From NCBI GenBank assembly GCA_021851895.1, contig JAJZQJ010000006.1, forward strand, positions 13,861 through 77,860: 64,000 nt of DNA. Reading direction: 5' to 3'. Position 1 is the stretch's first letter. Each line of letters begins with the position of its first letter. This document shows, piece after piece, positions 312 through 52,736 of the stretch. The notes below the pieces were generated by a model. That model saw nothing but the letters and a program-made list of their open reading frames with translations, made no database searches and had not been told where the DNA came from. Source of the DNA: a bacterium (GTDB lineage Bacteria; Patescibacteriota; Minisyncoccia; Phycocordibacterales; UBA6899). The position numbers and the translations under genes were made by a program.

Positions 312-368
312 CCTCTTCATTCTGAATAAAAAAACGCCAAAGGCGTTTTTTTATTCAGAATGAAGAGG
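312..368. terminator. 57-nt perfect palindrome (27-bp arms, aaa loop) with A/T tracts on both sides; bidirectional intrinsic terminator overlapping the last codons of pilC
   Basis: The reverse complement of 312-338 equals 342-368 exactly. Confidence 0.7.
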
Positions 369-1590
369 TGATGTCATAAATTGGCATAAGGACCGAGGTA
401 AGCAATCCTCCCACACCAAGACCGAGCATGACGATCATCGCAGGCTCAATAAGACCAACGAGTGTATCGACTGCGTTGTCGACCTCGCGCTTATAGAACT
501 TCGCAAGCGTCTCGAGAATGTTTCCAACTTCTCCAGTCTCTTCTCCAACGCGCACCATTTGCACCATGACCTGAGGAATGAGCGGAGATCGTCCCAATGC
601 CCCCGAAAGCGCCACTCCCGTACGCACATCCTGAGCTGCAGTGAGCATCGCCTGTTTGTAGAGTTCATTATCAACGACCTCAGCGGAGATTTCCACCGCG
701 CGCACCATCGGAACTCCAGAGGTAACCATCGTATTGATGTTATCGCAAATACGAGAGAGATAGAGCTTGCGATAGAGGTCTCCGACATAAGGGACCTGCA
801 GTGCAAGATTCGCATACACCTCCTTTCCCTCTCGCGACTGACCATAACGAATCGCAAAGAAGATACCGACTGCAAGGACCGCCGCAAAGAAGAGGCCGTA
901 ATTGATCAAGAAATTTGAGGCGCCAATAACGATGCGTGTATATATTGGAAGCTCCTTCCCCGTCTCAACGATGATCGCTGAAAGTTTCGGAATAACGATG
1001 ACGAGCATCAAGACCATGACCGAAGCGAACACCACGATAACGAAGGCTGGATAGACGAGGGCCTTTTTCGTCTTCGTGACGAGTTCATAGGTACGATCGA
1101 GGTAATCTGCGAGATACTCGAAGGTCTTTGAGAGGTTTCCTGACTCCTCGCCCGCGCGCACCATGTTCGTGTAGAATGGAGTGAAGACATCGGGGAATTT
1201 CGCCATTGCTGATGCAAGCGTCGAACCCGCACGGAGATCCTCGGCTATCGTTTCAAGACGATGGCGGAGTGCCACGTTCTCAGTCTCACCCGCGAGAAGC
1301 TGGAAGACACGCAGCGCAGGAACCTGCGCAAGAAAGAGCGTCGAAATTTGCCTCGAGAGGATGACGATATCTTTATATTTTACGCGCTCCTCGAAGAAAG
1401 AGAGCTTCTTCATCCAGGCAGGCTGCACGCCCACCTCACTGACGTTCATAACGACGAGGCCTCGACGTTGGAGCGCTGCGATTGCGAGGTCCTTGCTTGC
1501 CGCATCAACCTCACCGCGTCGCTCCTGCCCAGAGCTTTGTTCTATGGCGATATACCGAAATTGCATGCATATATTGTAGCATGGATTCAT
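355..1590 (-). CDS. pilC: Type IV pilus assembly platform protein PilC (GspF family), paralog 1
   Basis: 411 aa, polytopic, with two GspF-type repeats; sits next to pilT and pilB. Confidence 0.85.
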   Translation of the reverse strand: MNPCYNICMQFRYIAIEQSSGQERRGEVDAASKDLAIAALQRRGLVVMNVSEVGVQPAWMKKLSFFEERVKYKDIVILSRQISTLFLAQVPALRVFQLLAGETENVALRHRLETIAEDLRAGSTLASAMAKFPDVFTPFYTNMVRAGEESGNLSKTFEYLADYLDRTYELVTKTKKALVYPAFVIVVFASVMVLMLVIVIPKLSAIIVETGKELPIYTRIVIGASNFLINYGLFFAAVLAVGIFFAIRYGQSREGKEVYANLALQVPYVGDLYRKLYLSRICDNINTMVTSGVPMVRAVEISAEVVDNELYKQAMLTAAQDVRTGVALSGALGRSPLIPQVMVQMVRVGEETGEVGNILETLAKFYKREVDNAVDTLVGLIEPAMIVMLGLGVGGLLTSVLMPIYDITSSF

Positions 1591-1687
1591 GCAAGGTCAT
1601 CGGTCACAGGGGATAGGTCATAGGTTGATACGAATACAAAATCCAGTGCGTTGAGCACTGGATTTTCCCTATCACCTATCACCTTTT

Positions 1688-2755
1688 CTACAGTAAACGT
1701 TCGAGGGATTTTGGATTCTGCGAGTGCATATACGCACTATCCGCTGAGATCTCTCCCGACTTCACAAGACCTGCGAGAACACGATTCATGTCGATCATAC
1801 CAAGCTCAGAACCCGTCTCGATGATCATCGGAATCTCATGCGTGCGTCGTTCTCGAATGAGATTCGCGACTGCATTATTATTGATCAAAAGCTCATATGC
1901 AGGAACGAGGCCACCCGCAATTCGCGGCACAAGGCGCTGCGAGAAGATGCCGGCGAGCGAACCTGCGAGCTGCACGCGGATCTGATCTTGCTGCCCTGCT
2001 GGGAACGAGTCGATGATACGATCGATCGTCTGTGATGCATTGTTCGTATGCAATGTCGAGAGCACCAAGTGTCCAGTTTCTGCAGCAGTAACCGCTGCTG
2101 AGATCGTCTCAAGACCGCGCATCTCTCCGATAAGAATAACGTTGACATCCTCACGGAGACAAGAACGCAGAGCGATATTGAAGTCATCAGTATCGAAATG
2201 CACTTCACGCTGTGAGATCATCGAACGATCTGCCTGGAAGACATATTCGATCGGATCTTCGATCGTAACGATATTCTCTGCGCGATCACGATTGATCATT
2301 TCAACCATGGCTGCAAGCGTCGTCGATTTACCTTGCCCAACGGGACCCACACAAAGGAAGAAACCCTGTTTGCGCTTCGTGAAGAGCTCCAAGACAGGAG
2401 GTAGGCCGAGTTCATGTACGGTCTTCACTTTTTGAGGAACGAGGCGTAGAGCGATACCTATCGTGCCGCGTTGGAAGAATGCATTGCCGCGGAAACGCGC
2501 CTCAGAGCCAAACGAGAAAGAGAAGTCGGATTCCTTCGCCGAAAGAAAGCGCTTCATCCCCGCCTCATCGAGCAATTCTTGCAACACTGCACGCGTATCG
2601 TCTGGTGTAAGCACGGGGAATTTCACGAGCGGAACAAGGACACGAGCGACACGGATGGTTGGAGATCGCCCAACCGCGAAGTGAAGGTCTGATGCACCTT
2701 CTCTTATGACCGTAAGGATCAGCTCCTCAATGTATTTTCGATAATCTTGTATCAT
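1688..2755 (-). CDS. pilT: Twitching-motility / pilus-retraction ATPase PilT
   Basis: 355 aa; Walker A GPVGQGKSTT; a HLVLSTLHT-type His box; the size is typical of PilT. Confidence 0.85.
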   Translation of the reverse strand: MIQDYRKYIEELILTVIREGASDLHFAVGRSPTIRVARVLVPLVKFPVLTPDDTRAVLQELLDEAGMKRFLSAKESDFSFSFGSEARFRGNAFFQRGTIGIALRLVPQKVKTVHELGLPPVLELFTKRKQGFFLCVGPVGQGKSTTLAAMVEMINRDRAENIVTIEDPIEYVFQADRSMISQREVHFDTDDFNIALRSCLREDVNVILIGEMRGLETISAAVTAAETGHLVLSTLHTNNASQTIDRIIDSFPAGQQDQIRVQLAGSLAGIFSQRLVPRIAGGLVPAYELLINNNAVANLIRERRTHEIPMIIETGSELGMIDMNRVLAGLVKSGEISADSAYMHSQNPKSLERLL

Positions 2756-2764
2756 ATGAAAGAA

Positions 2765-3184
2765 TTATTTTTTCGATGCCGTCGCAGCTTGCTGCCGCGA
2801 TAATGCCTCCTCATAAATCCGACTCACCCTCCCCACCACTTCCGATGGCGTCGAGGTCGCTTTGACGATATATCCAAGCGCACCGAGCTTTACCGCACGC
2901 TCGATATCTTCTTCCTCCCCAAGATTAGAGAGTACGACGATGATTGCATTTGGTACGAGCTGCTCTGCGCGCATGGTCTCGAGAAGTTGAAAGCCATCCA
3001 TACCCGGCATCACGAGATCGGTCACCACTATTCCTGGCTTGTCTCCCGCGCGGATCTGGTCGAGTGCTTCTTTTGGATTTGCCTTGGCGACGACGTTGTA
3101 ACCAGCCATACTGAAGCGCTGGGAATACATATCGAGTAAGAATCCATCATCTTCGATGAGATACAGTGTAATAGGATCAGACAT
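2765..3184 (-). CDS. Single-domain response regulator (CheY-like REC)
   Basis: 139 aa; IEDD acidic pair and a DLVMPGMDG phospho-acceptor region; no output domain. Confidence 0.75.
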   Translation of the reverse strand: MSDPITLYLIEDDGFLLDMYSQRFSMAGYNVVAKANPKEALDQIRAGDKPGIVVTDLVMPGMDGFQLLETMRAEQLVPNAIIVVLSNLGEEEDIERAVKLGALGYIVKATSTPSEVVGRVSRIYEEALSRQQAATASKK

Positions 3185-3211
3185 GCCGTAATTATATCAC
3201 GGTAAATCCAA

Positions 3212-3303
3212 AGTCATGAGTCATGCGTCATGAGTCATGAGTAAAAGCAAAATACACAGCATAATACTGTGTATTTTTGAGCGCCCTCATGACTCATGAC
3301 TAG
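3212..3303. repeat. Inverted arrays of tandem heptamers (GTCATGA x4 at 3212-3243; CTCATGA x2 at 3286-3303) flanking the pilB terminator hairpin
   Basis: Seen directly in the sequence; the right-hand array overlaps the pilB stop codon. Confidence 0.6.
3250..3277 (-). terminator. Intrinsic terminator of pilB (aaatacacag / ctgtgtattt hairpin followed by a T-tract on the minus strand)
   Basis: 10-bp stem plus a U-run. Confidence 0.6.
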
Positions 3304-5027
3304 ATGATATTATTGATCTCCTCAAACGGTATGATGCCCTGAAACGCCTTTATGAGTGCGTCGTCTTTCATCGTGAGCATTCCCTTCCGACGAGCAATAT
3401 CGTAGATCATCTGCTCCTCAGGCTTTGTGAGGATAATATGCTCAATATCCTTATCGAGTCGCAGGAATTCAAAGACAGGAATACGACCCTTCGTTCCTGA
3501 AGGACAGCTCGCTGAAGGTGTCGCGTTATAGACGTAACTTGGGATCGTGATCGTCGCACGGATCTCCGGTGGGAGATCGGCAAACTGTCGTTCTGCCAAG
3601 ATGCGCTGACTTTCGGTCATCGGTTGTGCCGTCTTCCCTTCCTCACAGAGCGTACGGAGCAAGCGCTGCGCAACGACAAGCGCAAGTGTCGGTGCAATGA
3701 GATAGGGATCGACACCCATGTCGATGAGACGTGGTATCGCTCCTGCAGCAGTGTTCGTGTGCAAGGTTGAGAAGACAAGGTGACCGGTGAGTGCTGCCTG
3801 GATGGCAAGCTGTGCAGTCTCCTTATCACGGATCTCACCGACCATGATAATGTCGGGGTCCTGACGCAAGATAGAACGAAGACCATTCGCGAACGTATAC
3901 CCGATCTCCGGGCGCACTTGCGATTGAGACACTCCTTGCATGCTGTACTCAACTGGATCCTCGAGTGAGACGACATTGTACTTCTCTCGATCGAGCTCAC
4001 TGAGCATCGTATAAAGCGTCGTCGTCTTACCTGAACCGGTAGGACCAGTCACCAAGATAAGTCCATAGGGCATACCGAGCACCTGGCGAAGATCCGCCTT
4101 TCGCTTGTCATCCAAACCGATTTGATCGATGGTACGGATACCTCTCGATGAGTCGAGAATACGCATCACCACCTTTTCTCCGAAATATGCGGGGAATGTG
4201 GAGACACGGAAGTCTACACGTCGATCATCCATCTTCACTGAGAAACGCCCGTCCTGAGGCTTTCGCTTCTCATCGAGTTTCAGCTGTGCAAGGATCTTGA
4301 TACGCGCAACAACCGCACTGTGAATGTTCGTCGGCAAGATGATCGATGTGTACATTGCACCGTCGACACGAAAACGTACGCGCACGCGCTCACCCATGTG
4401 TTCAATGTGGACATCTGAAGCGTTCCCTTCCACGGCATGGCGCAAAAGCACTGCAACGATCTTCGTGACCGGCGCCTCTTCGACGATCTTCTCCTCGCCT
4501 TCACCCCCACCTGTAGACACCTCCTCGGCGCCACCTTGTGCGAACTCGACACCCTCGGTCTTCTCCATGTCGAGCTCAGAGAGCGCCTTGGTGACCTCAC
4601 CAGTAAGATTCTTATACTGCTCGACGACGTTATTGAAATCGGGTTGCGTGATAACGTAAAGTCGAAACGGCATCCCGAGCTTCGCCGCGATGAATTGCAC
4701 GGCATCGCGCGCCTGAGTGAAATCAGGATCGACAATACCAACCTCAAGCACAGAATCAACAACCGCGAGCGGAACGACAAAATAGTGCCTTGCCGACTCT
4801 TCAGGGATGTCGCGCAGGACACTAACGGGGACTTTTACGTCACCGAGAATGCGATATTCGAGACCATAGTACTCCGCCTTGAGTGTCAGGACCTGTTCCT
4901 GTGTCATACCACCCCGCGAAAGCACTTCATCAAGACCCCCCTTGGTTCGCTCTGACTCCTGCGTCAGCTCCGGTATGATCTGATCTTCGATGATCTGCTT
5001 CTGTGAGAGAAATTGCAGAAAACTCAT
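3300..5027 (-). CDS. pilB: Type IV pilus assembly ATPase PilB (GspE family), paralog 1
   Basis: 575 aa; Walker A GPTGSGKTTTLY; N-terminal GSPII_E_N-like region. Confidence 0.85.
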   Translation of the reverse strand: MSFLQFLSQKQIIEDQIIPELTQESERTKGGLDEVLSRGGMTQEQVLTLKAEYYGLEYRILGDVKVPVSVLRDIPEESARHYFVVPLAVVDSVLEVGIVDPDFTQARDAVQFIAAKLGMPFRLYVITQPDFNNVVEQYKNLTGEVTKALSELDMEKTEGVEFAQGGAEEVSTGGGEGEEKIVEEAPVTKIVAVLLRHAVEGNASDVHIEHMGERVRVRFRVDGAMYTSIILPTNIHSAVVARIKILAQLKLDEKRKPQDGRFSVKMDDRRVDFRVSTFPAYFGEKVVMRILDSSRGIRTIDQIGLDDKRKADLRQVLGMPYGLILVTGPTGSGKTTTLYTMLSELDREKYNVVSLEDPVEYSMQGVSQSQVRPEIGYTFANGLRSILRQDPDIIMVGEIRDKETAQLAIQAALTGHLVFSTLHTNTAAGAIPRLIDMGVDPYLIAPTLALVVAQRLLRTLCEEGKTAQPMTESQRILAERQFADLPPEIRATITIPSYVYNATPSASCPSGTKGRIPVFEFLRLDKDIEHIILTKPEEQMIYDIARRKGMLTMKDDALIKAFQGIIPFEEINNII

Positions 5028-7429: not shown

Positions 7430-8838
7430 CTAGTTAGTGAATCCGCCTCCAAAGAAGAATCGTACGAGTTTCGACTTACCCGAAGCGCCAAGTGCGTAAA
7501 GGAATGAACGAGAGATCGTGATGGCCGTAAAGAGCGACACGAGGACTCCCAAGCCGAGCGTCAACGCAAAACCCTTCACGACAGACGTACCAAACCAGAA
7601 CAGGATCGACGCTGAGATGAGTGACGAAATGTTCGAGTCGCGGATACTCGTCCATGCACGAGTGAATCCATCATGCATCGCATCACCGAGCTCCTTCCCT
7701 TTCTTCATCTCCTCCTTCATGCGCTCAAAGATGAGGATGTTCGCGTCGACTGCCATACCCACCGAGAGCAGGAATCCTGCGATACCTGCGGCGGTCAGTG
7801 TGACAGGAATCAACTTGAACACAATGAGCATCAACACGACGTAGATACCCATGGCGAGCGAAGCAACGATACCGGGCACGCGATACCACACGATGAGGAA
7901 GAACGCGACAAGCAAGATGCCGATGAGACCAGCATGTACACCAGCCTTCAACGCATTCTGCCCAAGTGTTGCACCGATCGTCTGCGTAGAAACAAGTGTG
8001 ATCGGTACCGGAATTGCACCAGAGTTCAAGCGACCCTTGAGGTCACGTGCCTCCTGGAGTGTGAAATTACCCGAGATGACTGCGTTACCATCGGTGATCG
8101 CCTCGCGAACGACTGGCGTCGAGATCGCCTGTCCATCGAGGTAGATGGCGACGCGCTTCTCAACGTTTGCCTTCGTGATCTCACCGAAGAGCTGCTTCCC
8201 TTCATCATTGAAAGCGAGTGAGATCGTCGGCTCATTCGTCTGACTATTGATCACCACCTCAGCCTTCTTGAGCTGAGCTCCAGTGAGCTTCGTTTCTACG
8301 AAATCAGGATCTTCGAGTGCGCGTGGGTGTGCGAGAAGTGCTGCCTTCTTTTCTTCATCCGTGACACCCTGCTTCTCGTAGACCGCCTTCACCGCATCGC
8401 GATCCTTCTTGATGGCGTCCTTATCTGGACCATCGGGACGCTCCGTCTTGAACTGCAAGAGTGGAGTCTGTCCGATCTGCTCTGTTGCAGCACGAACATC
8501 AGTAAGTCCTGGGAACTCGATGATCAGACGCTGCACTGCCTCGCCGTCTGCAGAATGCGTGGATTCCGTTTGGACATTGGGCTCTGAAACGCCGAGTGCG
8601 TTGATACGACGCTCGATAACATCACGGAGCGCTGCCATTGTCTCAGGGACATCCTTTGCTGCGACTGCCTTTGTATCCGCCTGATAAGTCAATTGTGTGC
8701 CTCCCTCGATGTCGAGTCCGAAGCGAAACGGAAAGTTCGCCATGAACTTGGTTCCTGGCTTCTCGCTCGCGTAGACACCAAACCCGAGCCCTACTCCAGC
8801 AAGGAGAAGGATGAGGGCAATAATGCGCTTTTTCCACA
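7430..8838 (-). CDS. secD: Protein translocase subunit SecD (start taken at MWKKR)
   Basis: About 470 aa with a large periplasmic domain and a C-terminal six-TM bundle; adjacent to secF. A TTTACG-16-TATAAT promoter-like pair lies 10 nt upstream of the ATG. Confidence 0.85.
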
Positions 8839-8972
8839 TAATACCTTGAATTATAGCTATATTTATGTTCTCGTAAACCTTGACACCACATCGTAACTTG
8901 AGCACAGAGAGGAGAAAAATGAAGTCCTCGCACAAAAGAAAAACCCATCACATTATGATGGGCAACTTACGC

Positions 8973-9458
8973 TCAAGAGAATCTTGGACGCTCGTAGATC
9001 GGAGTGAGTTTCGTGCGCTCAATGATCACCTGGCGCCACGCATCAACCGAGACATGACCCACCGGGGGGATGTCATCCAATTGATGCTTCGCAGCATGAT
9101 GCAAACGACGCAATACACGCTCTGCGTCGATGAGCTCTAACCGCATGCCAATGCGATAGACTGCATCATCTGAGAGTCTCTCGGGCGGACCGTCAGCATA
9201 GACCAACTCCCCCGAGAAAAGATCGACTGCTGCGGTTCGCGCGATATTCCAGCTCGTTTCCCGAATTCTCCACAGTCCGGAATAATAGGCGAACGCAAGG
9301 TCATTCTCTTGAGCACCATGATATCCGTCGTCCGCATGAAGCGCGCACCAGGGCACACGCCTCCAAAGATCCTTCTGCGCACGGACGTGATCGCGAATAT
9401 GTTCAATGAACGTCGCTCGCTCACGCTCGAGGACACAGCTCACATCATTGGTTTTCAT
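8973..9458 (-). CDS. Hypothetical protein (162 aa)
   Basis: ORF with a GGAGG RBS 7 nt upstream of the ATG; its own terminator hairpin at 8944-8962. Confidence 0.5.
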   Translation of the reverse strand: MKTNDVSCVLERERATFIEHIRDHVRAQKDLWRRVPWCALHADDGYHGAQENDLAFAYYSGLWRIRETSWNIARTAAVDLFSGELVYADGPPERLSDDAVYRIGMRLELIDAERVLRRLHHAAKHQLDDIPPVGHVSVDAWRQVIIERTKLTPIYERPRFS

Positions 9459-9661
9459 TGCGTCCTCCTTTCTGACACTGAAAACACGATACCACATCAA
9501 TCACCCCCTGGCAATGCATCGAAATATAGAGCTATGCTATTATCGCAGCGGAGGTTGTTTGCAGGGCATTTTTTTTCGCACTCTTTTTGTCTCGGGGCTT
9601 CCGAGCAAAAGAGCGCAGCTTCCATTTACCCACAGCGCGACACGCGCACAACAGGAGTCAT

Positions 9662-10802
9662 CATGACAAAAATCATTTTCAAGAACGACGCACAGCGCCA
9701 GTACATCAATATCGACTGGAATAAGGTCGTCGCCCGCCTCGAGGAACTCAAGAACGTCAAGGAGTCACTTGGCAACAAGCACTTCACACAGTCCGTTCGC
9801 GAATGGGCCGAAAGCCTCGAGATCGAAGAGCAAATCCGTCTGCTGAATGTCACACTCGGAGGGCTCTCGAACGATGATGCTTCCGTTGGTGTCTATGCGA
9901 CGAGACCCGAGGATTACGAGCGTTTCGCTCCCTTCCTCGAGCCGATCATCCGTGAATATCACAAGATTTCCGGAGAAACCAAGCAGCACCACGATTGGAA
10001 TATCCCCGTCGGTGAATATGTGCTCACGAAGATCGATCCCTCGCTCGACCGTGTCTCGATGCGTGCTCGCGTCGCACGTAACGTCAACGGATGGAATCTT
10101 CCCAGCTCGATGAGCCAGGACGAGCGAGTGCAGTTCGAGGCGTACATGGAAGGAATTTTTGCTGGTCTCTCGATCGCGGGCAAGTATCACAGCCTGACTC
10201 CAGGTCACGCTGCGGAACTGTCCCAAGAGGAAGCAGACCAAATGCGCCGCGACCACATGCTCTTCAACGACATGACGACCGATAACCATCTCACTTCGAG
10301 TGGTATCGCGTCGCACTGGCCGCACGGGCGTGGTATCTGGGTTTCAGAAGATGAGACCAAGATGATCTGGATCGGTGAGGAGGATCACCTCCGCATCATC
10401 TCGATCGTCCATGGGAATGACCTCGGGGTCGTGGATAAGTCTCTTTCGGACCTCCTCACCGCGATGGAGAACGCGGGCGTCGCATTTGCGATGCACCCGA
10501 CCTATGGCGTCATCACGACCTGTCCGACCAACATGGGTACGGGAAAGCGCCAGTCCATCCTTGGCATGTTCCCGAATCTCTCGAAGCGTGGAACCGATGA
10601 GGCGAACTTGAAGCGCATCGCCAAGGAGCTCGGTCTCCAGGCGCGTGGCCTTTCGGGTGAGCACTCCCAAATGGATGAACGCGGTACTGCGGACATCTCG
10701 CCATCAGCACGCTTCGGCGTCACTGAGGCAGAGGTCACGAAGCGTCTCTATGAGGGACTTCGCGCACTCTACGCACGCGAGAAGGAAGCGGGTCAGGAAT
10801 AA
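9662..10802 (+). CDS. Phosphagen kinase (ATP:guanido phosphotransferase, arginine-kinase-like) with the N-terminal domain
   Basis: 380 aa; CPTNMGTGKR active-site signature; HWPHGRGIW, EEDHLRIIS and GEHSQ motifs; AGGAG RBS. The longer ORF from 9309 is rejected. Confidence 0.75.
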
Positions 10803-10810
10803 AAAAAGGA

Positions 10811-10835
10811 AACCAGGGATCACCCTGGTTTTTTC
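10811..10835. terminator. Bidirectional terminator shared by the convergent kinase and PAP2 genes (aaccaggg atca ccctggtt)
   Basis: Hairpin with flanking A- and T-runs. Confidence 0.6.
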
Positions 10836-11359
10836 ATACTCCATTTTTTCTCAAGCGGTCCATAGCAAAGCGCTACAACGATTCCGATCGATGCGCCAAT
10901 GAGCACATCACTTGCCCAATGCACGCCGACGGCAACTCTCCCCAACATGGTGAATGGCACCATGAAAGCGATCACCTTCCCTAGGCGAGGATGCGTAGAG
11001 AGGAGCGTCGTCGCAAATGCAGCGATGAGCGCCGAATGCATCGAGGGGAATGAGGCATGCGGATCCGTCGCGGGCACAAATGGCACGAGATGAAGGGCTG
11101 CATAAGGACGATCTGAGGGAAACAAATACTTTAGGAGCAAGACGACAAGCATCGCGGAGAGCGCAGGAAGAATATCGTGAAATACCGTACGTGAATACAT
11201 CCCCTTCCGGCGCAGGGGAAGCATGACGAACACATAAAGCGCGAAGGCAATGACGAGGGTACCATCTGAGAAGATGATCGCGATATATTCCATCAGCATG
11301 CTCTTCGAGAAAAACGAGAACACGGCGACAGCGATAGAATGATTGATTGCGGTGATCAT
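10820..11359 (-). CDS. PAP2-family phosphatase (undecaprenyl-diphosphatase / BcrC-like)
   Basis: 179 aa; all three PAP2 motifs present: KYLFPSDRP, PSMHS, GRVAVGVHWASD. Confidence 0.7.
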   Translation of the reverse strand: MITAINHSIAVAVFSFFSKSMLMEYIAIIFSDGTLVIAFALYVFVMLPLRRKGMYSRTVFHDILPALSAMLVVLLLKYLFPSDRPYAALHLVPFVPATDPHASFPSMHSALIAAFATTLLSTHPRLGKVIAFMVPFTMLGRVAVGVHWASDVLIGASIGIVVALCYGPLEKKWSMKKPG

Positions 11360-12198
11360 GTTGTTTGATGTTGACGACCTCGCGCCAGAATGAGTACATT
11401 CTTCATCAGCGCAGAGACGACCAGCGGACCAACCCCTCCTGGTGTCGGCGTGAAAAGTTCTGCATGCAGTGCGACATCGGGATGGACATCACCGACAAGC
11501 TTTCCGTCGATACGTTGCATCCCTGCATCGATCACAACAACTCCTTCGCTCACATGTTCAGGGAGAAGCAGATTCGGTACCCCCGTACCACAAATGATGA
11601 TTTGAGCCTCCTTGGTGAACTCCTTAAGATCACGAACAGGCTGATCGACAACAGTGACCCGCGCGCCACATTGACGCATAAATTGCGCAAGTGGAGCCCC
11701 GACAAGTATTCCATGACCAAGTACAAGCACCTCCCTTCCGAGCGTGTGCACATTGTACGCTTCGAGTATGTACTGCACAGCAGAGACGATCGGCGGAAGG
11801 ATCGGGAATTCCTCATGTGCAAAGCGCGCACGGGCAAGCGGTGAAAGAACATCGACGTCCTTCTCTATCGGGATAGCAGAGAGGACCTTATTCCTATCGA
11901 TGTGTGGAGGAAGCGGAAGCTGTACGATGATGCCATCGATATCTCCGTCTCCAGCGAATTCTTGTACAGCCTCAATGACCATTTCAGTCGTCGCTGCATG
12001 AGACAAACGCAAGACTTTCGCTCCCATAGATAGCTCTCTTGCTTTCGCTACTTTTCGTTCTACATAACTCGCACTCGGCGCATCACCTTCAATGAGAATG
12101 ATTCCGAGGCCTGGAGTGAAATCGAACTGTGCCCGTGCCTTTTTCAGTGATTCTTCCATTTTTTTCGCGAGCGCTCTGCCATGCACAATATTCATCAT
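11356..12198 (-). CDS. folD: Bifunctional methylene-THF dehydrogenase / methenyl-THF cyclohydrolase FolD
   Basis: N-terminal MMNIVHGRALAKK aligns with FolD; dinucleotide-binding GHGILVG; PGGVGP loop. The stop overlaps the PAP2 start by 4 nt. TATAAT lies 6 nt upstream of the ATG, which may indicate a leaderless transcript. Confidence 0.85.
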   Translation of the reverse strand: MMNIVHGRALAKKMEESLKKARAQFDFTPGLGIILIEGDAPSASYVERKVAKARELSMGAKVLRLSHAATTEMVIEAVQEFAGDGDIDGIIVQLPLPPHIDRNKVLSAIPIEKDVDVLSPLARARFAHEEFPILPPIVSAVQYILEAYNVHTLGREVLVLGHGILVGAPLAQFMRQCGARVTVVDQPVRDLKEFTKEAQIIICGTGVPNLLLPEHVSEGVVVIDAGMQRIDGKLVGDVHPDVALHAELFTPTPGGVGPLVVSALMKNVLILARGRQHQTT

Positions 12199-12228
12199 GC
12201 TGGCATTATAGCATGGGTGTATACTATG

Positions 12229-13020
12229 CATATGAAACCACTATTCCGTTCCCTCCTCTATATCGCCATCGGCGTTTATGTTGGCTATGGAGCGCTCGTC
12301 ACATTTCGACAAGATCGTATGCTCTACTATCCACCGCAAGGGACTCCTGACATTTCAACCTGCGCAAAAGATATCGGCGGCATACCCATTGTCGATCCCA
12401 AATACAAGGACCTCCATGGTGTCCTCTATGAAAAGAGTTCGAGCACACTCATCGTCATTTATCACGGCAATGCAACTGACGCATGTGAGCGCGGCCTCTA
12501 TCTGACCGCACTCCATGATAACCCCGCAAGCATACTCATCGTCTCGTATCCAGGCTATCTCGGTGACCTCACCCCACCAAGCAGCACGCGGATACTTAAG
12601 GAAGTCGCACAAGTCGTACTCTGGACGACAGAGCACCGCTATCTTACGGTTGGCGTGATCGGAGAGAGTATCGGGGTCGGACCCGCGAGCTATCACGCCG
12701 CCCTCTACCCCGCGCCCCTTGCGCTCATTGCGCCCTACCCCTCACTCTCCGCACTCGCATCGACGATATTTCCGTTATATCCCATGCGCGCACTTCTCCA
12801 TGAAGACTTCTACGTAAGCACATGGTCACGTGCAGCATCGCGTGTACTTATCATCGCCGGAGCGAAAGACACCATGGTACCCAAACGGCTCTCCGAAGAA
12901 CTCTTCGCCTCATTGCCGCAAAAAGAGAAATATTTTCTTGAACTCCCCTACGATCATGATGGACTACTCTCGAGCGCTGAGAGTGCACGCATGATCGCAC
13001 GCTTCCTCAATGTGCAATAA
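12229..13020 (+). CDS. Alpha/beta-hydrolase-fold protein with an N-terminal membrane anchor
   Basis: GESIG nucleophile elbow, a downstream Asp/His, and an N-terminal TM segment. Confidence 0.5.
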   Translation, partial: HMKPLFRSLLYIAIGVYVGYGALVTFRQDRMLYYPPQGTPDISTCAKDIGGIPIVDPKYKDLHGVLYEKSSSTLIVIYHGNATDACERGLYLTALHDNPASILIVSYPGYLGDLTPPSSTRILKEVAQVVLWTTEHRYLTVGVIGESIGVGPASYHAALYPAPLALIAPYPSLSALASTIFPLYPMRALLHEDFYVSTWSRAASRVLIIAGAKDTMVPKRLSEELFASLPQKEKYFLELPYDHDGLLSSAESARMIARFLNVQ

Positions 13021-26088: not shown

Positions 26089-26565
26089 TCAACCGCCAAC
26101 TCTCGTTATGACCGGTGTCCCACGATCATCGATACTGACCATTAACCTAACCGCACTATAGCCAATGGTGAATGTCGTCGATGCAGTTGCTCCCGAGAGC
26201 GGCGCGAATTCTACACTCCGCGGCACGCTTGAAGGATCGATCCAAGAGACACCAACGGGGAGCGTCTTCGTTTCAGTCGAAAATGGTTCAGCAGCATAAT
26301 CTCGAGTACCTGTCGCGTAGAATTCCCACGATGCGCTCGCCGGCAATGCCCGCACTCCCCAGGTCATTCCCCTATCTCCGGCGATCGCTCTTCCTCTTGC
26401 GGCTTCGATATCCGCAACAAATGACTGCATTGCACTACCCGCAGCAACTTCAATGATCGATGACCGGAAATACATGATTCCCGCTGCGCTGAGCACAGTA
26501 AGTACTGCCAGTGTTATCAACACCTCCAATATAGTGAACGCTCGGTTGTCTCTTGTGGTTTTCAT
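26089..26565 (-). CDS. Pseudopilin
   Basis: Start at MKTTRDNRAFTILEVLITLAVL: canonical prepilin N-terminus. Confidence 0.7.
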   Translation of the reverse strand: MKTTRDNRAFTILEVLITLAVLTVLSAAGIMYFRSSIIEVAAGSAMQSFVADIEAARGRAIAGDRGMTWGVRALPASASWEFYATGTRDYAAEPFSTETKTLPVGVSWIDPSSVPRSVEFAPLSGATASTTFTIGYSAVRLMVSIDDRGTPVITRVGG

Positions 26566-26587
26566 ATGCAAGTCACCGCATGAACGA

Positions 26588-27220
26588 TCAGCAACCAGTG
26601 CAAAGTTGCAATTTATCTCCGACCTGGATGTTCTTATGTGTCCCGAGCAGTATATTCGGCGTCTCACATCCCACAGTAGAAGAACCAACGAGACTCCAAC
26701 CTGTTTGACCGCAAACGATATTTCGCCATCGAGTAAGTACTGTCGACACGACGAGCGATTCACCCGTTCCCCACATAGCATTTGCAGTGATGAGGAGAGA
26801 CCCAGAATCGATCACGCTTGATGAAGTTGCAGTAAGCGCAAGCGGTGTCGTTGTCGCCGCAATCGTCCTGGAAGCATCTTGCACGGTGAAGGAAAGTGCG
26901 TAGGAAGTACCATCTATTACAACGGTGCTCGTTCCGATGGATGGCACATAGTGGTTTGCGGTGAGCGTCATCGCGTAGGGCGTGTTTCTTTGCAATTGTG
27001 CTATAGAACCCCAACTTTCCTCCGATGCAGCGCGAACCCTCGTGAGCATTTCCTCGATAGCGCTGCTCGCGACTGTTCTCATTCTCGACGTTTTCTCACT
27101 GACGAATCCTGCGGATAACGCCTGCGCGATGATCGTCGATATGGCGAGAAAGAGCGCGAGCGAGAGCAGCACTTCAATGAGCAGCACACCCCTTTGTGTT
27201 TGTCTGGCCATTATCTGCAT
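26588..27220 (-). CDS. Pseudopilin with a Cys-rich C-terminus
   Basis: N-terminus QRGVLLIEVLLSLALF is prepilin-like (G-x-L-L-I-E). Confidence 0.6.
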   Translation of the reverse strand: MQIMARQTQRGVLLIEVLLSLALFLAISTIIAQALSAGFVSEKTSRMRTVASSAIEEMLTRVRAASEESWGSIAQLQRNTPYAMTLTANHYVPSIGTSTVVIDGTSYALSFTVQDASRTIAATTTPLALTATSSSVIDSGSLLITANAMWGTGESLVVSTVLTRWRNIVCGQTGWSLVGSSTVGCETPNILLGTHKNIQVGDKLQLCTGC

Positions 27221-27223
27221 ACG

Positions 27224-28435
27224 CTAAGATACTTTCGTCATAAGCTGATAGATCGGCAGGAGTATACTCATCGCGATCAAACCGACGACGACACCCATAA
27301 CAAGGAGAAGTAGCGGTTCGAGCAGTGTGGTCATGTTTCGAAGGAGATAATCCACTTCGTCATCATAGAAATCAGAAACTTCAACCAAGATATCTCCGAG
27401 CTTGCCGGTCTCCTCACCCACTCGCGTGAGTCCAACAACAATTCCAGGAAAAAGCTCTGGATGCTTTTCGAGTTCTCCCGAAAGCGGTGCGCCACCCATT
27501 ACTGCCTGGCGCGCTTCGCGTGTTGCGCGTTCCATTGCACGATGACCTACACTTCCTGCGGTCGTCTCAAGTGCTTCCATCATGGGAATTCCTGCAACAA
27601 GCAAATTACCCAGCGTACGGGTGAAGCGCACAAGTGCAACACCATGGACAACAGTCCTTGCAATCGGTACGCGTTCAAGTGCGAGCGCAAAGAGTGCCCT
27701 ACCTTTTTCCGCTTTGCGAAACCAATAGACGATACCGCCGATACAGAAGAGGAATAATCCATCGAGCCACAGGCTGTATGAAAAGCTATTCGATAGTGCA
27801 AGGATGATGCGGGTGAGTAGTGGAAGCGCGACACCCGATTGCGCGAAGGCTCCAGAAAGTCTCGGGAGTACGAAAATGAGCAACAAGAGAATGACTGCAC
27901 CTGAACCGATGACAAGAATGAGCGGATACACGAGTGCACCCTTCACACGCTGCCGTAAACCGAAATCACGCTTCAGGTACTCTGCGATGAGTGCAAGCGT
28001 CTTCCCAAGCGTTCCCGAAAGTTCACCAGACTGAAGAAGGCCAATAAATGCGGGATTGAAATACTGTTTATACGGGGTGAATGCTTGGGACAATGATGCA
28101 CCACCACGCACCGACGCTTCAACACCTGCGATCATCGATTTCATCGCGGGGCGCTTATTGTCTTTTGAGAGTAGTGAAAGTGCGCCAAGCACAGTAACTC
28201 CGGCCTGCAAAGCGATTCCAAAATTTCGTATGAAAAAGAGAATATCTGCCGCTGCCGGCGCACGCTTTGAAAAACGGCGAAACGGCGTTTCGCCCTCATG
28301 CATCAGAGAAAGTTCCACGGGTGTTATCCCTCGCTGCATGAGTAGAGTAACGGCATGCTCGCGCGTTGCACCCTCGATGCTCCCCTCTACGTGTGCACCC
28401 TTTTTGCTTATTGCTTTGTAGACATAGACTGGCAT
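27224..28435 (-). CDS. pilC: PilC / GspF-family platform protein, paralog 2
   Basis: 403 aa; two GspF repeats; immediately downstream of the second pilB. Confidence 0.85.
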   Translation of the reverse strand: MPVYVYKAISKKGAHVEGSIEGATREHAVTLLMQRGITPVELSLMHEGETPFRRFSKRAPAAADILFFIRNFGIALQAGVTVLGALSLLSKDNKRPAMKSMIAGVEASVRGGASLSQAFTPYKQYFNPAFIGLLQSGELSGTLGKTLALIAEYLKRDFGLRQRVKGALVYPLILVIGSGAVILLLLIFVLPRLSGAFAQSGVALPLLTRIILALSNSFSYSLWLDGLFLFCIGGIVYWFRKAEKGRALFALALERVPIARTVVHGVALVRFTRTLGNLLVAGIPMMEALETTAGSVGHRAMERATREARQAVMGGAPLSGELEKHPELFPGIVVGLTRVGEETGKLGDILVEVSDFYDDEVDYLLRNMTTLLEPLLLLVMGVVVGLIAMSILLPIYQLMTKVS

Positions 28436-28449
28436 AGCTCTCTCAATGA

Positions 28450-30159
28450 TTATTCGCGTGCAACACGCAGCACCTCCTCAATAGTTGTCGATCCAAGCTC
28501 TACTTTGCGGAGCCCATCTTCGAACATCGTGACCATGCCTTCCTTTATTGCCTGCTTGCGCAGCGTCGCAGAGTCCTTCCCTTCTACAATGAGCGTGCGC
28601 ACCGCATCGCTTATTGGGAACACTTCAAAAATGCCCATCTGTCCAAGATATCCCGTCATGCTGCAAACCGAACAACCTTTTCCTTTAAACAACGTCTGTG
28701 GAAGATGCGTAATATGCTCTTCGCCTCGCTCAGCGAGCTCTGCTTTGATGCGCGCATTCGTTGCATCATCAGCGGGATACGAGGTGATACATGTCGTACA
28801 TACGCGTCGCACCAAACGCTGCGCAATGACGACATTCACCGTACTTGAGAGCAGAAACGGTTCAGCGCCCATATCGACGAGTCGCGGCACTGCGCTTGGC
28901 GCATCAGTCGTATGCAACGAAGAGAGGACGCGATGTCCGGTAAGTGCCGCATGTATTGCGATCTCTACGGTTTCATTATCGCGAATCTCTCCGATCATGA
29001 TGATGTCGGGGTTCTGTCTGAGTAATGCGCGAAGACCATTTGCGAACGTGATACCTGTCTTCGTATTCACTTGTGTTTGATTGATGCGGGGAAACTCATA
29101 TTCAACGGGATCTTCGATCGTCGTGATGTTCACATCAGGAGTATTCAGGATCTGAAGCAATGCATAGAGCGTTGTCGTTTTTCCGTGACCCGTTGGACCA
29201 GTGACCAAAATGAGTCCATGAGGTCGATGAATCTCCAACTCAAGTGCCTTGATCGCGGATTCCTCCAACCCAAGACTCGAAAGAGACAACGGCCTTGCTG
29301 ATGAGCGCAAAAGACGCATCTCAGCTTTCTCTCCGTGAAGCACCGGAATGATATTCACACGAACATCAGTTGATGCACCCTCCTCGCTCTCGAAAGCGAA
29401 ACGGCCATCCTGAGGAACACGATGTTCGTCGATTGCGAGATTTGCGAGCACCTTCACGCGCGCAACAAGTGCAGTGATGAGCTCGGGAGGCAGCTGCACG
29501 ACAACGCGCATGACTCCATCAACGCGGAAACGCACGAGCATAGCATCGGGTAGAGGCTCAAAGTGGACGTCCGATGCATTCAACGTAATTGCATGATCAA
29601 GTATTTTCGTGAGGATCGTTGTAATTGAAACAGAGGTTGCCTTTGCATTGAGCGGCTGATCAATTTCGTGCGCAGCCTCCTCCGCATGACCTTTCAGGAT
29701 CGTCTCGAAATCACCGCCGAAAGTCGGCTGATACTGCTTGAGCCCATAATGGAAGCTCGAAGAACCCATGAGCGCGGGCTCCACCCAAGCAGAAAGAAGC
29801 GCAGCAACATAGGCTCTTGTCCCATAATCGAGCGGATCAAGCATTGCAAGCTGCGCAACACCGGACTCTTTATTAAAGCCATAGAGTATGACACGTTTCG
29901 ATTTCGCGACAGCCTCAGGAAGCATCGACAATACCGCCGCATCGATTTCGATACGATGGAGATTGATGACAGGAACACCATAGTACGGCTGCAACGTCTC
30001 AAGAAAGATATCTTCGGAAATCACCCCTCTTCCGATGAGGACATCCTCGATCTCGTGGCCCGAATGCGCCGCTTCGGTCGCAGCGAGCTCAAAATCGTCT
30101 TCCGATACGAAGCCGGAATCTATGAGAAAACCACGGAGTGCCTCCTTCGTTATATGCAT
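28450..30159 (-). CDS. pilB: PilB / GspE-family assembly ATPase, paralog 2
   Basis: 569 aa; Walker A GPTGHGKTTTLY; tetra-Cys motif CTTC...CSVC; N-terminal GSPII_E_N-like domain. Confidence 0.85.
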   Translation of the reverse strand: MHITKEALRGFLIDSGFVSEDDFELAATEAAHSGHEIEDVLIGRGVISEDIFLETLQPYYGVPVINLHRIEIDAAVLSMLPEAVAKSKRVILYGFNKESGVAQLAMLDPLDYGTRAYVAALLSAWVEPALMGSSSFHYGLKQYQPTFGGDFETILKGHAEEAAHEIDQPLNAKATSVSITTILTKILDHAITLNASDVHFEPLPDAMLVRFRVDGVMRVVVQLPPELITALVARVKVLANLAIDEHRVPQDGRFAFESEEGASTDVRVNIIPVLHGEKAEMRLLRSSARPLSLSSLGLEESAIKALELEIHRPHGLILVTGPTGHGKTTTLYALLQILNTPDVNITTIEDPVEYEFPRINQTQVNTKTGITFANGLRALLRQNPDIIMIGEIRDNETVEIAIHAALTGHRVLSSLHTTDAPSAVPRLVDMGAEPFLLSSTVNVVIAQRLVRRVCTTCITSYPADDATNARIKAELAERGEEHITHLPQTLFKGKGCSVCSMTGYLGQMGIFEVFPISDAVRTLIVEGKDSATLRKQAIKEGMVTMFEDGLRKVELGSTTIEEVLRVARE

Positions 30160-30232
30160 ATACTAAAGTATACCACATATACAAAAAGCTACTCATAAAG
30201 AGTAGTGGGGACAGCATGCGCGCCAAGGAAAG

Positions 30233-30910
30233 TCAGTGCGTGAAGCGGAGCATGTCAAAAATAGGAAAGACGATTTCCATCTTTGTTCCGGAGAAATAGA
30301 CAAGCACAGTGGCAATGATGAGCGACGGGTAGAGTGGAGCCCGTCCCCCGCCCCTTATGGTCACAAAAACCACATGAATGAAAAAGAGTACGAAAGCGAC
30401 GATCACATAGAGAAGAATATCTGGCCAACCGACAATGAGACTACCTGCGATGAAAATATTAATGTCGAGCGCAGAGAGTAGGTGCGGCCGATACGCTCGG
30501 AGTGCCCTGAGTAGGATGTAGAGGAGCAACGTCGTAAGCAAACCCCAGAAGAGCGCCAGCCAGAAATGCGACAACATGTAGTCAAAAAAATATCCATGGC
30601 GCAAACGCAATAGCGGACCAAAGAGTGCGTAAAGTCCCGGCAGTGGCACGCCCGAAGGAAGCGGAAGATAGGTAAGCGGTCGAGTAAACTGATTGTCAAA
30701 CCAATGCACATATTGCCCCGCAGAAAGGAATATTCCGTAAAGAATACGCGAGAGTATATATCCGATATGAATCCAACTCATCCGCAAAATCCGCAGGTCT
30801 GTTCGCAAGGAGCCCCAAGCGAGCAGCAAGACATAGCAGAGAAGGCACGCCATGTTGAAGTAGACGAGCAGATGCCCAAAGATGTCGGCGCGCATTAAAG
30901 TTCCTATCAT
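30233..30910 (-). CDS. Polytopic membrane protein, candidate prepilin peptidase (A24-like) by position
   Basis: 225 aa, 6-7 TM; sits between the pilin gene and pilB; conserved Asp candidates present, but no GGGD motif. Confidence 0.4.
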   Translation of the reverse strand: MIGTLMRADIFGHLLVYFNMACLLCYVLLLAWGSLRTDLRILRMSWIHIGYILSRILYGIFLSAGQYVHWFDNQFTRPLTYLPLPSGVPLPGLYALFGPLLRLRHGYFFDYMLSHFWLALFWGLLTTLLLYILLRALRAYRPHLLSALDINIFIAGSLIVGWPDILLYVIVAFVLFFIHVVFVTIRGGGRAPLYPSLIIATVLVYFSGTKMEIVFPIFDMLRFTH

Positions 30911-30976
30911 ATATTATATTATATCAAGTCTTCAGAGGAATACAAAAAGCGCCGAAGCGCCTTATGTATTTTCCTT

Positions 30977-31675
30977 TTAGAAACTCCCTTGTCCGAGAAT
31001 ACGAATATTCGTACCCACTTCAAAGAGATTGTCATTATCACCTCCATCGGACTGCATGCGATTGGTGACCTTTGTGAATTCATCGCTCTCGAGACGTGCA
31101 TCTACCTCATACGTCAATGTTGTTGAATTACATGCATAGCGATAGACGTAGTCGGAGTTTACCGGCGCGGTGAGGGTCGTCAGCTTGTTCACGGGATCAA
31201 CAGGAAGATTTGATATCGGAGACCCCGAAGTGAGTGCTTCAAAGTTCACTGGGATCCACCCAGAACCATCTACGCGCGCGAGATTTGCGAGAGTGACTTG
31301 GGCTGCGGTTGGCTGCGTCGTCACACCAGAAAGATTGATGCCCGTTATGCTCCCTGTATCAGAGGGCAAACTGTACCAGATCTTATTCCCTGTCGTCCAG
31401 CCAGATGCGCTGCGACAAAGACTATTGATAGTCGATGTTGGACTACCATCGAGATTCGGATCCGAGATCGTTGTCGTATAAACACCCATTGCAGTCTTGA
31501 GTGTGTTGAGATCGGAGATACGCTGAGAGTCACGAGATTTTCGCAATGTTTCTACCGGATTGATCACGATGATCAACATCACGGAAAGAATAGCGATGAT
31601 GGCGATCACGATGAGCAACTCGAGCAGTGTAAAACCCTCATGCTGCCTCTCTTGTTTTACAAATAGAGATTGCAT
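30977..31675 (-). CDS. pilA: Type IV (major) pilin
   Basis: Leader MQSLFVKQERQHE followed by GFTLLELLIVIAIIAIL, a textbook class III signal. Confidence 0.8.
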   Translation of the reverse strand: MQSLFVKQERQHEGFTLLELLIVIAIIAILSVMLIIVINPVETLRKSRDSQRISDLNTLKTAMGVYTTTISDPNLDGSPTSTINSLCRSASGWTTGNKIWYSLPSDTGSITGINLSGVTTQPTAAQVTLANLARVDGSGWIPVNFEALTSGSPISNLPVDPVNKLTTLTAPVNSDYVYRYACNSTTLTYEVDARLESDEFTKVTNRMQSDGGDNDNLFEVGTNIRILGQGSF

Positions 31676-52218: not shown

Positions 52219-52736
52219 GGGAAAAGCGTATAGGGAAAAGGTAATAGGGTTAATGCATTAAAGACATTTGATGCATAGCCGTTCTACTATATTTATAGAT
52301 AGTGTGCTATATTATAGCGATGGTGTACATTAAGGACTACAAGGATCTTATTGTATGGAAGAAGTCAATGGTCCTCACAAAGACCATATACCTGCTCTGT
52401 AAACACATTCCGACCTCTGAAAAATTCAGCCTAATTTCTCAGATGCAGCGATCTGCAGTTTCTGTGCCCTCAAACATTGCGGAAGGCTACGGGCGCACGA
52501 CGCGCAAAGATTATGCGCACTTCCTGCATATTGCACGAGGCTCAGCGGCCGAGCTAGAAACCCAAATCTTACTCACGAAAGACCTCTATCCGAATATCGA
52601 TACTACGCTAGCTCTCAACCAAGTAATGGAGGTTCGTAAGATTCTTGTCGTACTTATTCAAAAACTTGAGGCAAAATGAAAATGCAGCACGAGTATGCTG
52701 CATTTCCCTATTCCCTTTTCCCTATACGCTTTTCCC
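52219..52736. mobile_element. TIR-flanked cassette (518 nt; TIRs gggaaaagcgtatagggaaaaggtaatagggttaatgc / gcatttccctattcccttttccctatacgcttttccc) carrying one small gene
   Basis: The 37-nt ends are reverse complements apart from about 4 mismatches; same family as 48131-48262. Confidence 0.6.
52320..52679 (+). CDS. Four-helix-bundle protein (23S rRNA intervening-sequence protein family)
   Basis: Signature VPSNIAEGYGR...KDYAHFLHIARGSAAELETQ; own hairpin terminator at 52679-52704. Confidence 0.65.
   Translation: MVYIKDYKDLIVWKKSMVLTKTIYLLCKHIPTSEKFSLISQMQRSAVSVPSNIAEGYGRTTRKDYAHFLHIARGSAAELETQILLTKDLYPNIDTTLALNQVMEVRKILVVLIQKLEAK

Follow-up and report, generated by a model that had tools for sequence, protein, structure and literature searches.

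A predicted arginine kinase in a Parcubacteria-group bacterium and its place beside the arginine kinases of ciliates

Storing energy in a phosphagen to meet bursts of ATP demand is regarded as a solution of eukaryotes, and of animals above all. The 64,000-nucleotide stretch of contig JAJZQJ010000006.1 (assembly GCA_021851895.1) analysed here, hereafter the window, carries a gene that a first-pass annotation had described as a eukaryote-like phosphagen kinase in a reduced bacterial genome. What this enzyme is, how its gene came to lie among bacterial genes and what it could do there are the questions raised by the locus. The gene product is an arginine-kinase-type phosphagen kinase. The best explanation of the locus as a whole, which we regard as probable, is an arginine kinase (AK) of a bacterium from the candidate phyla radiation (CPR), encoded in what looks like its own transcription unit, inserted into a conserved gene row, belonging to a bacterial clade that is sister to the ciliate AKs, and serving as an ATP buffer.

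Both domains expected of a full-length phosphagen kinase are present in the product of 379 amino acids (aa), as had been proposed: the N-terminal guanidino-substrate domain PF02807 (E = 1e-11, 45.5 bits) and the catalytic ATP:guanido phosphotransferase domain PF00217 (E = 1.5e-54, 184.9 bits) each exceed the gathering score. The four motifs quoted in the first-pass annotation, HWPHGRGIW (residues 218–226), EEDHLRIIS (239–247), CPTNMGTGKR (287–296) and GEHSQ (332–336), are all found. No PDB sequence matches it better than 7EWS (E = 1.4e-167, residues 3–375, about 65–70% identity over 373 residues), which is listed in a review table (PMC11492440), and likewise described by Foldseek, as AK3 of Paramecium tetraurelia. 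It is followed by the two-domain AK of Anthopleura, the taurocyamine kinase of Schistosoma, and dozens of arthropod AKs and vertebrate creatine kinases. An AlphaFold model built from a 19-sequence alignment of the clade described below (mean predicted local distance difference test score, pLDDT, 83.7) has helices at residues 7–99 and then a beta-sheet core. Its top Foldseek match is 7EWS (E = 7e-48, template modelling (TM) score 0.90). TM scores against the AKs of Limulus, shrimp and Anthopleura are 0.72–0.75, and the matches beneath 7EWS are exclusively arginine, taurocyamine, creatine or glycocyamine kinases.

Catalytic residues were mapped by aligning the clade with Limulus AK, whose sequence agrees with structure 1RL9 at 356 of 357 residues. 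Limulus R124, R126, H185, E225, R229 and C271 correspond to R134, R136, H198, E240, R244 and C287 of the window AK, and T273, R280, R309, E314, H315 and R330 to T289, R296, R328, E333, H334 and R350. The complete set of Limulus residues that bind the nucleotide phosphates and catalyze the transfer is retained, so none of the key catalytic residues is missing, and R134, R136, E240, R244, C287, R296, R328 and E333 are invariant across the 19 sequences. The guanidino-specificity loop, which had been singled out for inspection, is of AK length with no insertions or deletions relative to Limulus 57–68; D62 and Y68 are kept as D72 and Y78, while S63 and G64 are replaced by A73 and S74. In the Limulus structure the contacts of S63 and G64 are made via backbone atoms. 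Altogether, five residues differ from those important in arthropod AKs (S63A, G64S, R193N, H284L and R312S). All except S63A are clade-wide, the Paramecium AKs included, where position 63 is Ser. The inter-domain ion pair D62–R193 of arthropod-type AKs is therefore missing throughout the clade, R193 being N208 in the window AK. Since R193N is also found in the Paramecium AKs, which are reported as characterized arginine kinases (Yano et al. 2017, cited in PMC11492440), this ion pair would not be required for activity in this subfamily. From the 65–70% identity to these reported AKs and the AK-length specificity loop we infer that arginine is the substrate.

The same substitutions bear on another possibility, namely that the guanidino substrate of the enzyme is something else than arginine, or that the reaction runs mostly backwards, drawing on host-derived phosphoarginine as a form of energy parasitism. 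Besides the deviating loop positions and the replacement of R193 and H284, this possibility draws on the general host dependence of CPR bacteria and on the large phosphoarginine pools reported for the cilia of ciliates (PMC11492440). However, the changes at 64, 193 and 284 are shared with Paramecium enzymes that are reported as arginine kinases, and the loop is of AK-type length. Moreover, no transporter is linked to the gene among the flanking open reading frames (ORFs) of 12 bacterial AK loci, and the samples come from groundwater and other free-living communities. We consider such a function quite unlikely and continue with an arginine kinase.

A different identity, that of an McsB-type protein-arginine kinase tagging proteins for degradation by ClpCP, had been doubted by the first-pass annotation on account of the N-terminal domain. 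McsB of Bacillus and Geobacillus (PDB 6FH1, 6TV6) has a PF00217 core homologous to that of AK, and its product is phospho-arginine; the NCBIfam McsB models do match the window AK, weakly and partially (E values from 1e-25 to 1e-4). Yet the equivalog scores are 21–91 bits against cut-offs of 381–679 (the best, 90.6 bits, against 385), and the PDB chains of McsB rank last among the matches (1e-16 to 1e-12), a marginal similarity next to about 65–70% identity to a true AK. McsB is without PF02807, the binder of free arginine, which the window AK possesses. The features that McsB does have, a C-terminal dimerization/phospho-arginine-binding domain, an McsA partner and a ctsR-mcsA-mcsB-clpC operon, are all missing here: the window AK terminates 4 residues past its PF00217 match, and neither McsA (UVR zinc-finger), CtsR nor ClpC was found among the approximately 51 window ORFs scanned against Pfam, the neighbours of the gene being SecDF, orfX, PAP2 and FolD. 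The McsB identity was accordingly rejected as very improbable.

The AK gene is contained in a long forward-strand frame (9309–10802) that ends in TAA (10800–10802) and has no in-frame TAA or TAG under the standard code. ATG 9663 is its best start, because a Shine-Dalgarno-like AGGAG precedes it and all homologues begin at the matching position; the span first given to the gene, 9662–10802, had the end exactly right and the start one base early. The public record calls a protein of 422 aa from ATG 9534, which is probably too long, since the homologues have 382–389 aa and the additional 43 codons upstream show no protein-level conservation in L003, the contig of a sister species derived from a groundwater metagenome. 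Directly 3' of the AK stop, and overlapping the stop codon of PAP2, lies a hairpin that is a probable bidirectional terminator common to these two convergent genes. With its own ribosome-binding site and this hairpin, AK looks like an independent transcription unit (Table 1).

The host itself is a CPR bacterium of the Parcubacteria/Paceibacteria group, because the named relatives of its SecD are 'Parcubacteria group bacterium GW2011_GWA2_47_8' and 'Candidatus Paceibacterota'. Relatives of the AK occur in Ca. Kaiserbacteria and Ca. Lloydbacteria. The reduced bacterial genome first supposed for the gene is supported by a host of this type. In two related contigs, L013 (GCA_964386905.1) and L014 (GCA_025355525.1), whose SecD is 74% and 76% identical to that of the window, the gene order matches that of the window: glycosyltransferase, FolD, PAP2, SecD, SecF, a gene of unknown function, PilB, response regulator, PilT. 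There, the gap between PAP2 and SecD is 80–141 bp and contains neither AK nor orfX, whereas in the window and in L003 it holds AK, on the opposite strand, and orfX. Because PAP2 adjoins SecD in L013 and L014 and the other two contigs carry two extra genes, AK and orfX constitute a lineage-specific insertion of about 1.9 kb. At the insertion we found no transposase or integrase, and direct and inverted repeats were short and at chance level. OrfX occurs only in the window and L003; it is absent from L013 and L014 and from every other AK locus. A further ORF of 279 aa without Pfam matches (12181–13020, forward strand), between FolD and a sugar transferase, is 77% identical in L003 and absent from the syntenic L013 and L014, and represents another lineage-specific insertion in the same gene row.

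Table 1. Features of the AK locus (window coordinates)
Feature	Position	Strand	Basis and remarks
AK gene (arginine-kinase-type phosphagen kinase), 379 aa + stop	9663..10802	+	Pfam, similarity to 7EWS, structural model, residues
Shine-Dalgarno-like AGGAG	9653..9657	+	5 nt upstream of ATG 9663, read directly
N-terminal guanidino-substrate domain PF02807, residues 33-97	9759..9953	+	Pfam; holds specificity loop N70-D-D-A-S-V-G-V-Y78
Catalytic ATP:guanido phosphotransferase domain PF00217, residues 170-375	10170..10787	+	Pfam; E240, R244, C287, R296, R328, E333
Inserted segment, ~1.9 kb	8840..10819		between SecD and PAP2; compared with L013, L014
SecD	7430-8839	-	flanks insertion
orfX, 153-175 aa	8973..9500	-	divergent from AK; no Pfam matches
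G+C-rich hairpin AAACCAGGG-ATCA-CCCTGGTTT, A-run and T-run flanks	10810..10834		consensus match only
PAP2	10820-11359	-	flanks insertion, convergent with AK

Between the window and L003, SecD is 92%, AK 89% and orfX 50% identical. For AK, the nonsynonymous and synonymous divergences (dN and dS) are 0.069 and 0.96, giving a dN/dS of 0.072; the ratio is 0.048 for SecD, 0.083 for SecF and 0.19 for PAP2, and dN of orfX, a rapidly evolving frame, is 0.49. With a dN/dS in the range of SecD and SecF and well below that of PAP2, AK is functional and maintained under strong purifying selection. Its insertion into the conserved row, between PAP2 and SecD, predates the divergence of the window organism and its sister species, and the gene has been retained under such selection ever since. 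Base composition was considered as a clue to the donor and rejected. The AK gene has a G+C content of 0.56 against 0.50 for the host genome, and it is richer in G+C than the host in all five loci examined (0.52–0.57 against 0.46–0.51). Its third-position G+C content (GC3) of 0.69 is the highest among 56 window ORFs, but EF-P and an epimerase, at 0.67, come close behind, so an expression-linked bias is as likely a cause as foreign origin.

With which other kinases does this one group? A word-indexed search recovered a compact group of proteins, many of them from metagenome-assembled genomes (MAGs) and metagenomes, at 64–77% identity to the window AK. It includes a Ca. Kaiserbacteria protein annotated as 'hypothetical' and seven Paramecium AKs at 65–67%. 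The next tier, at 41–45%, consists of 363-aa bacterial AK homologues, for example from a Rhodobacterales MAG. In the species-representative genome set, a Ca. Lloydbacteria MAG carries a relative of 76% identity. In the exhaustive library clustered at 50%, essentially a single full-length, single-domain sequence stands for the whole group, besides a multi-domain protein and some fragments; named cluster representatives among the relatives come from the diatom Chaetoceros, the metamonad Dysnectes, a nematode and an octocoral.

Scanning metagenomes yielded a further 45 AK loci of two kinds. Loci of the first kind encode a single-domain AK without in-frame stops on bacterial contigs of 4–47 kb with 39–60% G+C. 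Those of the second kind lie on AT-rich contigs, with AK frames that contain 1–18 in-frame TAA/TAG per domain and no in-frame TGA, and many are tandem multi-domain ORFs. The presence of in-frame TAA/TAG and the absence of TGA indicate that the second kind uses the ciliate nuclear code. Full-length bacterial AK homologues turn out to be not very rare in metagenomes, contrary to the rarity first assumed for bacterial phosphagen kinases.

Trees of these AKs (neighbour-joining, 100 bootstraps, without named Tetrahymena or Sulfurovum cluster-A references) unite the bacterial and ciliate-code sequences in a joint clade that excludes animal and other bacterial AKs, with a bootstrap of 93 that rose to 100 with more sampling. 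The ciliate-code side, Paramecium included, is monophyletic in 100 of 100 bootstraps (42 ciliate-code domains). The bacterial side is monophyletic in 95 replicates when sampling was small and in 67 when it was large; since neither the ciliate side nor the joint clade is ever lost, the bacteria are paraphyletic around the ciliates in the remaining replicates. Mean identity is 68.5% on the bacterial side, 76% on the ciliate side and 62% between the two. The window AK thus belongs to a diverse bacterial clade, sister to the ciliate AK clade that includes Paramecium AK1–4. The term 'eukaryote-like' holds insofar as the closest characterized proteins are ciliate AKs; it does not fit the position of the gene, which lies in a bacterial sister clade and is not nested in the ciliates. 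The bacterial clade is spread patchily through Paceibacteria (Kaiserbacteria, Lloydbacteria and the window lineage) and probably reaches other bacteria too.

Two more distant branches lie outside this joint clade. Its immediate outgroup is an orphan AK, P0057 (L009–L011), which is 54% identical to the bacterial and the ciliate clades alike and is encoded on contigs of 1.4–1.6 kb with 38% G+C, with a tRNA-Gln(UUG) gene about 130 nt upstream. The next branch is P0159 (L007 5270–7146, L008), a distant AK homologue of 39% identity with only PF00217 on record. It lies on a 105-kb contig of 38% G+C, taken to be bacterial because of its compact gene organization. The P0159 gene is directly downstream of an adenylate kinase gene on the same strand, with which it may form a two-enzyme adenylate-energy module, and a heliorhodopsin gene is 1.4 kb away.

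Several ciliate-code contigs from the environment carry tandem 'poly-arginine-kinases', whose longer ORFs contain 26–64 in-frame TAA/TAG but lack in-frame TGA. These are found at L021 (2–5075), L033 (the whole 5.5-kb contig), L031 (584–4595), L034, L037/L038 and L019, and as proteins P0128 and P0018. L031 has three AK domains, and L021 and L033 each have at least five in one continuous ORF. All belong to the clade that contains the Paramecium AKs. A single AK gene on APMI01003674.1 (L029, 6001–7071) is stop-free, with 59–62% G+C, and forms a sharp island in a contig of 22–46% G+C with sparse ORFs; it branches within the ciliate-code clade in 100 of 100 bootstraps.

The closeness to Paramecium might suggest a recent import from a ciliate host into a symbiotic Parcubacterium. 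The closest named and structurally solved relatives of the window AK are indeed Paramecium AKs (65–67% identity), its gene is a lineage-specific insertion, and Ca. Sonnebornia yantaiensis, a member of the Parcubacteria (OD1), is cited as an endosymbiont of Paramecium bursaria (Gong et al. 2014, in PMC7308576). A symbiosis of this sort is a plausible ecological route for AK exchange. Nevertheless, the bacterial AKs are never nested in the ciliate clade, which is monophyletic in every neighbour-joining replicate, and their diversity equals or exceeds that of the ciliate ones. P0159, the next outgroup of tellable origin, lies on the contig taken as bacterial, and the AK gene is richer in G+C than its host, the opposite of what would be expected from AT-rich ciliates. 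The absence of nesting, the diversity and the G+C content contradict recent acquisition from Paramecium or another of the sampled ciliates, and we judge such a eukaryote-to-bacterium transfer unlikely. Ancient transfer, whichever its direction and including one from a stem or unsampled ciliate, is possible. A bacterial donor of the ciliate AKs is conceivable because the ciliate clade is tight and includes no bacterial sequence and because the bacterial one shows more diversity and sometimes paraphyly, and we lean slightly toward a bacterial origin of this ciliate AK lineage. A bolder proposal is that an intimate association of Paceibacteria with ciliates exchanged the gene, with the ciliary AKs of the Paramecium type and the poly-AKs coming from a bacterial, possibly CPR, donor, and with a phosphoarginine store in a bacterial cell without respiration. 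This proposal is speculative and in our estimate doubtful.

High similarity to a eukaryotic protein in a metagenome-derived sequence also brings to mind an artefact of assembly or binning, in which a ciliate gene has been chimerically joined to a bacterial contig. However, the independent contig of the sister species has AK between the same bacterial genes, at 89% identity for AK and 92% for SecD with a dS of about 1. The frame is stop-free in the standard code, whereas the ciliate-side homologues, except L029, all carry 1–18 TAA/TAG per domain. The gene has a Shine-Dalgarno sequence and a hairpin terminator, and clade members are embedded in bacterial contigs of 12–400 kb, with bacterial genes on both AK flanks in more than 10 independent contigs. 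An artefact is exceedingly improbable, and we treat AK as a genuine gene of its bacterial host.

In an all-against-all comparison of flanking ORFs from the 12 bacterial loci, no partner besides AK itself recurred in three or more. In most of the other bacterial loci examined (L001, L004–6 and L020), as in the window, AK stands by itself and is read in the direction opposite to the genes around it; L002 and L015 have an upstream gene that shares the orientation of AK. The first-pass annotation had connected the kinase with bursts of pilus-motor activity, and a PilB/PilT cluster does lie 4.6 kb from AK in the window. This link is not borne out, as L013 and L014 have the same pilus cluster without AK at this locus and none of the AK neighbours is conserved across the 12 loci.

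Some individual neighbours deserve mention. An HI0933-like FAD flavoprotein gene lies immediately upstream of AK in two bacterial lineages (L002 4719–5915; L004 4582–5859; L005/L006 6578–7855), sharing the orientation of AK in L002 and diverging from it in the Kaiserbacteria contigs; the vicinity of the window AK has no such gene. In L015 (2781–9297; 60% G+C), genes for an Mrp-antiporter-like subunit and a fused 30-kDa/49-kDa NiFe-hydrogenase/complex-I-like subunit are directly followed by AK on the same strand, with a Na+/H+ exchanger downstream. The G+C content and Mbh/Mrp-like genes of L015 suggest that the AK clade extends beyond the CPR, and a link of this AK to an energy-converting complex is possible. 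The neighbours in L020 are UvrB, Pif1 and an M14 peptidase.

As a whole the window encodes PilB, PilT, PilC, pilins, SecDF, FolD, PAP2, glycosyltransferases, FtsW, RecA, FtsK, EF-P, SSB and S6, together with many large proteins without a family match in the Pfam scan. It holds two separate type IV pilus gene sets, PilC/PilT/PilB at 355–5027 and PilC/PilB with pilins at 26089–31675, several response-regulator receiver proteins, and very large ORFs (1361 and 1285 aa) that match hardly any family. An isolated ORF at 52302–52679 (forward strand) belongs to the '23S rRNA-intervening sequence protein' family (PF05635, E = 2e-33); there is no rRNA gene anywhere in the window, and neither tRNA nor Rfam matches were found across its whole length.

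The enzyme would be a cytosolic arginine kinase of the monomer type, catalyzing ATP + L-arginine <-> ADP + N-phospho-L-arginine. Its most likely function is that of a phosphoarginine/ATP buffer in time, in which phosphoarginine would be loaded when ATP is plentiful and would regenerate ATP from ADP when a small fermentative cell starves or faces a burst of demand. Several points weigh against this reading. The residues listed above do differ from those important in arthropod AKs; the trees are neighbour-joining only; genes for arginine uptake or arginine metabolism were not found among the window ORFs scanned; the arginine kinase activity is predicted throughout the bacterial clade; and the physiological role is one that we purely infer.

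How does the window AK compare with known arginine kinases? Its two-domain architecture is that of P. tetraurelia AK3 and the other Paramecium AKs, with which it also has in common the clade-specific insertions (PGHxxE after LT, DMTT, and an RGT/AGT segment) as well as R193N, H284L and a non-Arg residue at 312. It differs from them in its standard code, Shine-Dalgarno sequence, G+C richness and separate sister clade, in A73 (Ser in Paramecium) and H242 (Gln in Paramecium, H227 in Limulus), and in the absence of the C-terminal tail of AK3. Bacterial AKs are known from Desulfotalea psychrophila, Myxococcus xanthus, Sulfurovum lithotrophicum, Moritella and Oceanithermus (Andrews 2008, Suzuki 2013, Bragg 2012, Fraga 2019, all cited in PMC11492440), and their origin, ancient or horizontal, is described as debated (PMC11492440, PMC6429109). 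Like the window AK they are full-length and patchily distributed, with a horizontal origin under debate; in contrast to its CPR host, theirs belong to the Proteobacteria or Deinococcota and have a complete respiratory metabolism. Some bacterial AKs had already been united with ciliate AKs in a 'cluster A' (Suzuki et al. 2013, as cited in PMC11492440). Whereas the 363-aa bacterial homologues are 41–45% identical to the window AK, identity between the present clade and the ciliates is 62–70%. The window AK clade is thus a new and much closer bacterial sister lineage of the ciliate AKs, in CPR bacteria, and fits the cluster-A picture. Among the papers searched, none connects 'arginine kinase' with Patescibacteria or Parcubacteria.

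As an enzyme the window AK is ordinary; what sets it apart is its host, its conservation and its position beside the ciliate AKs. The known bacterial AKs are few and found in metabolically complete Proteobacteria, while here a strongly conserved AK recurs in CPR bacteria. For the origins of protist AKs, the present clade is the closest bacterial relative of the ciliate enzymes found here and provides a much better-sampled test case in the debate on the origin of bacterial AKs (Suzuki 2013; PMC6429109). For the CPR bacteria themselves, AK is a concrete candidate for energy management in ultra-small fermentative cells.

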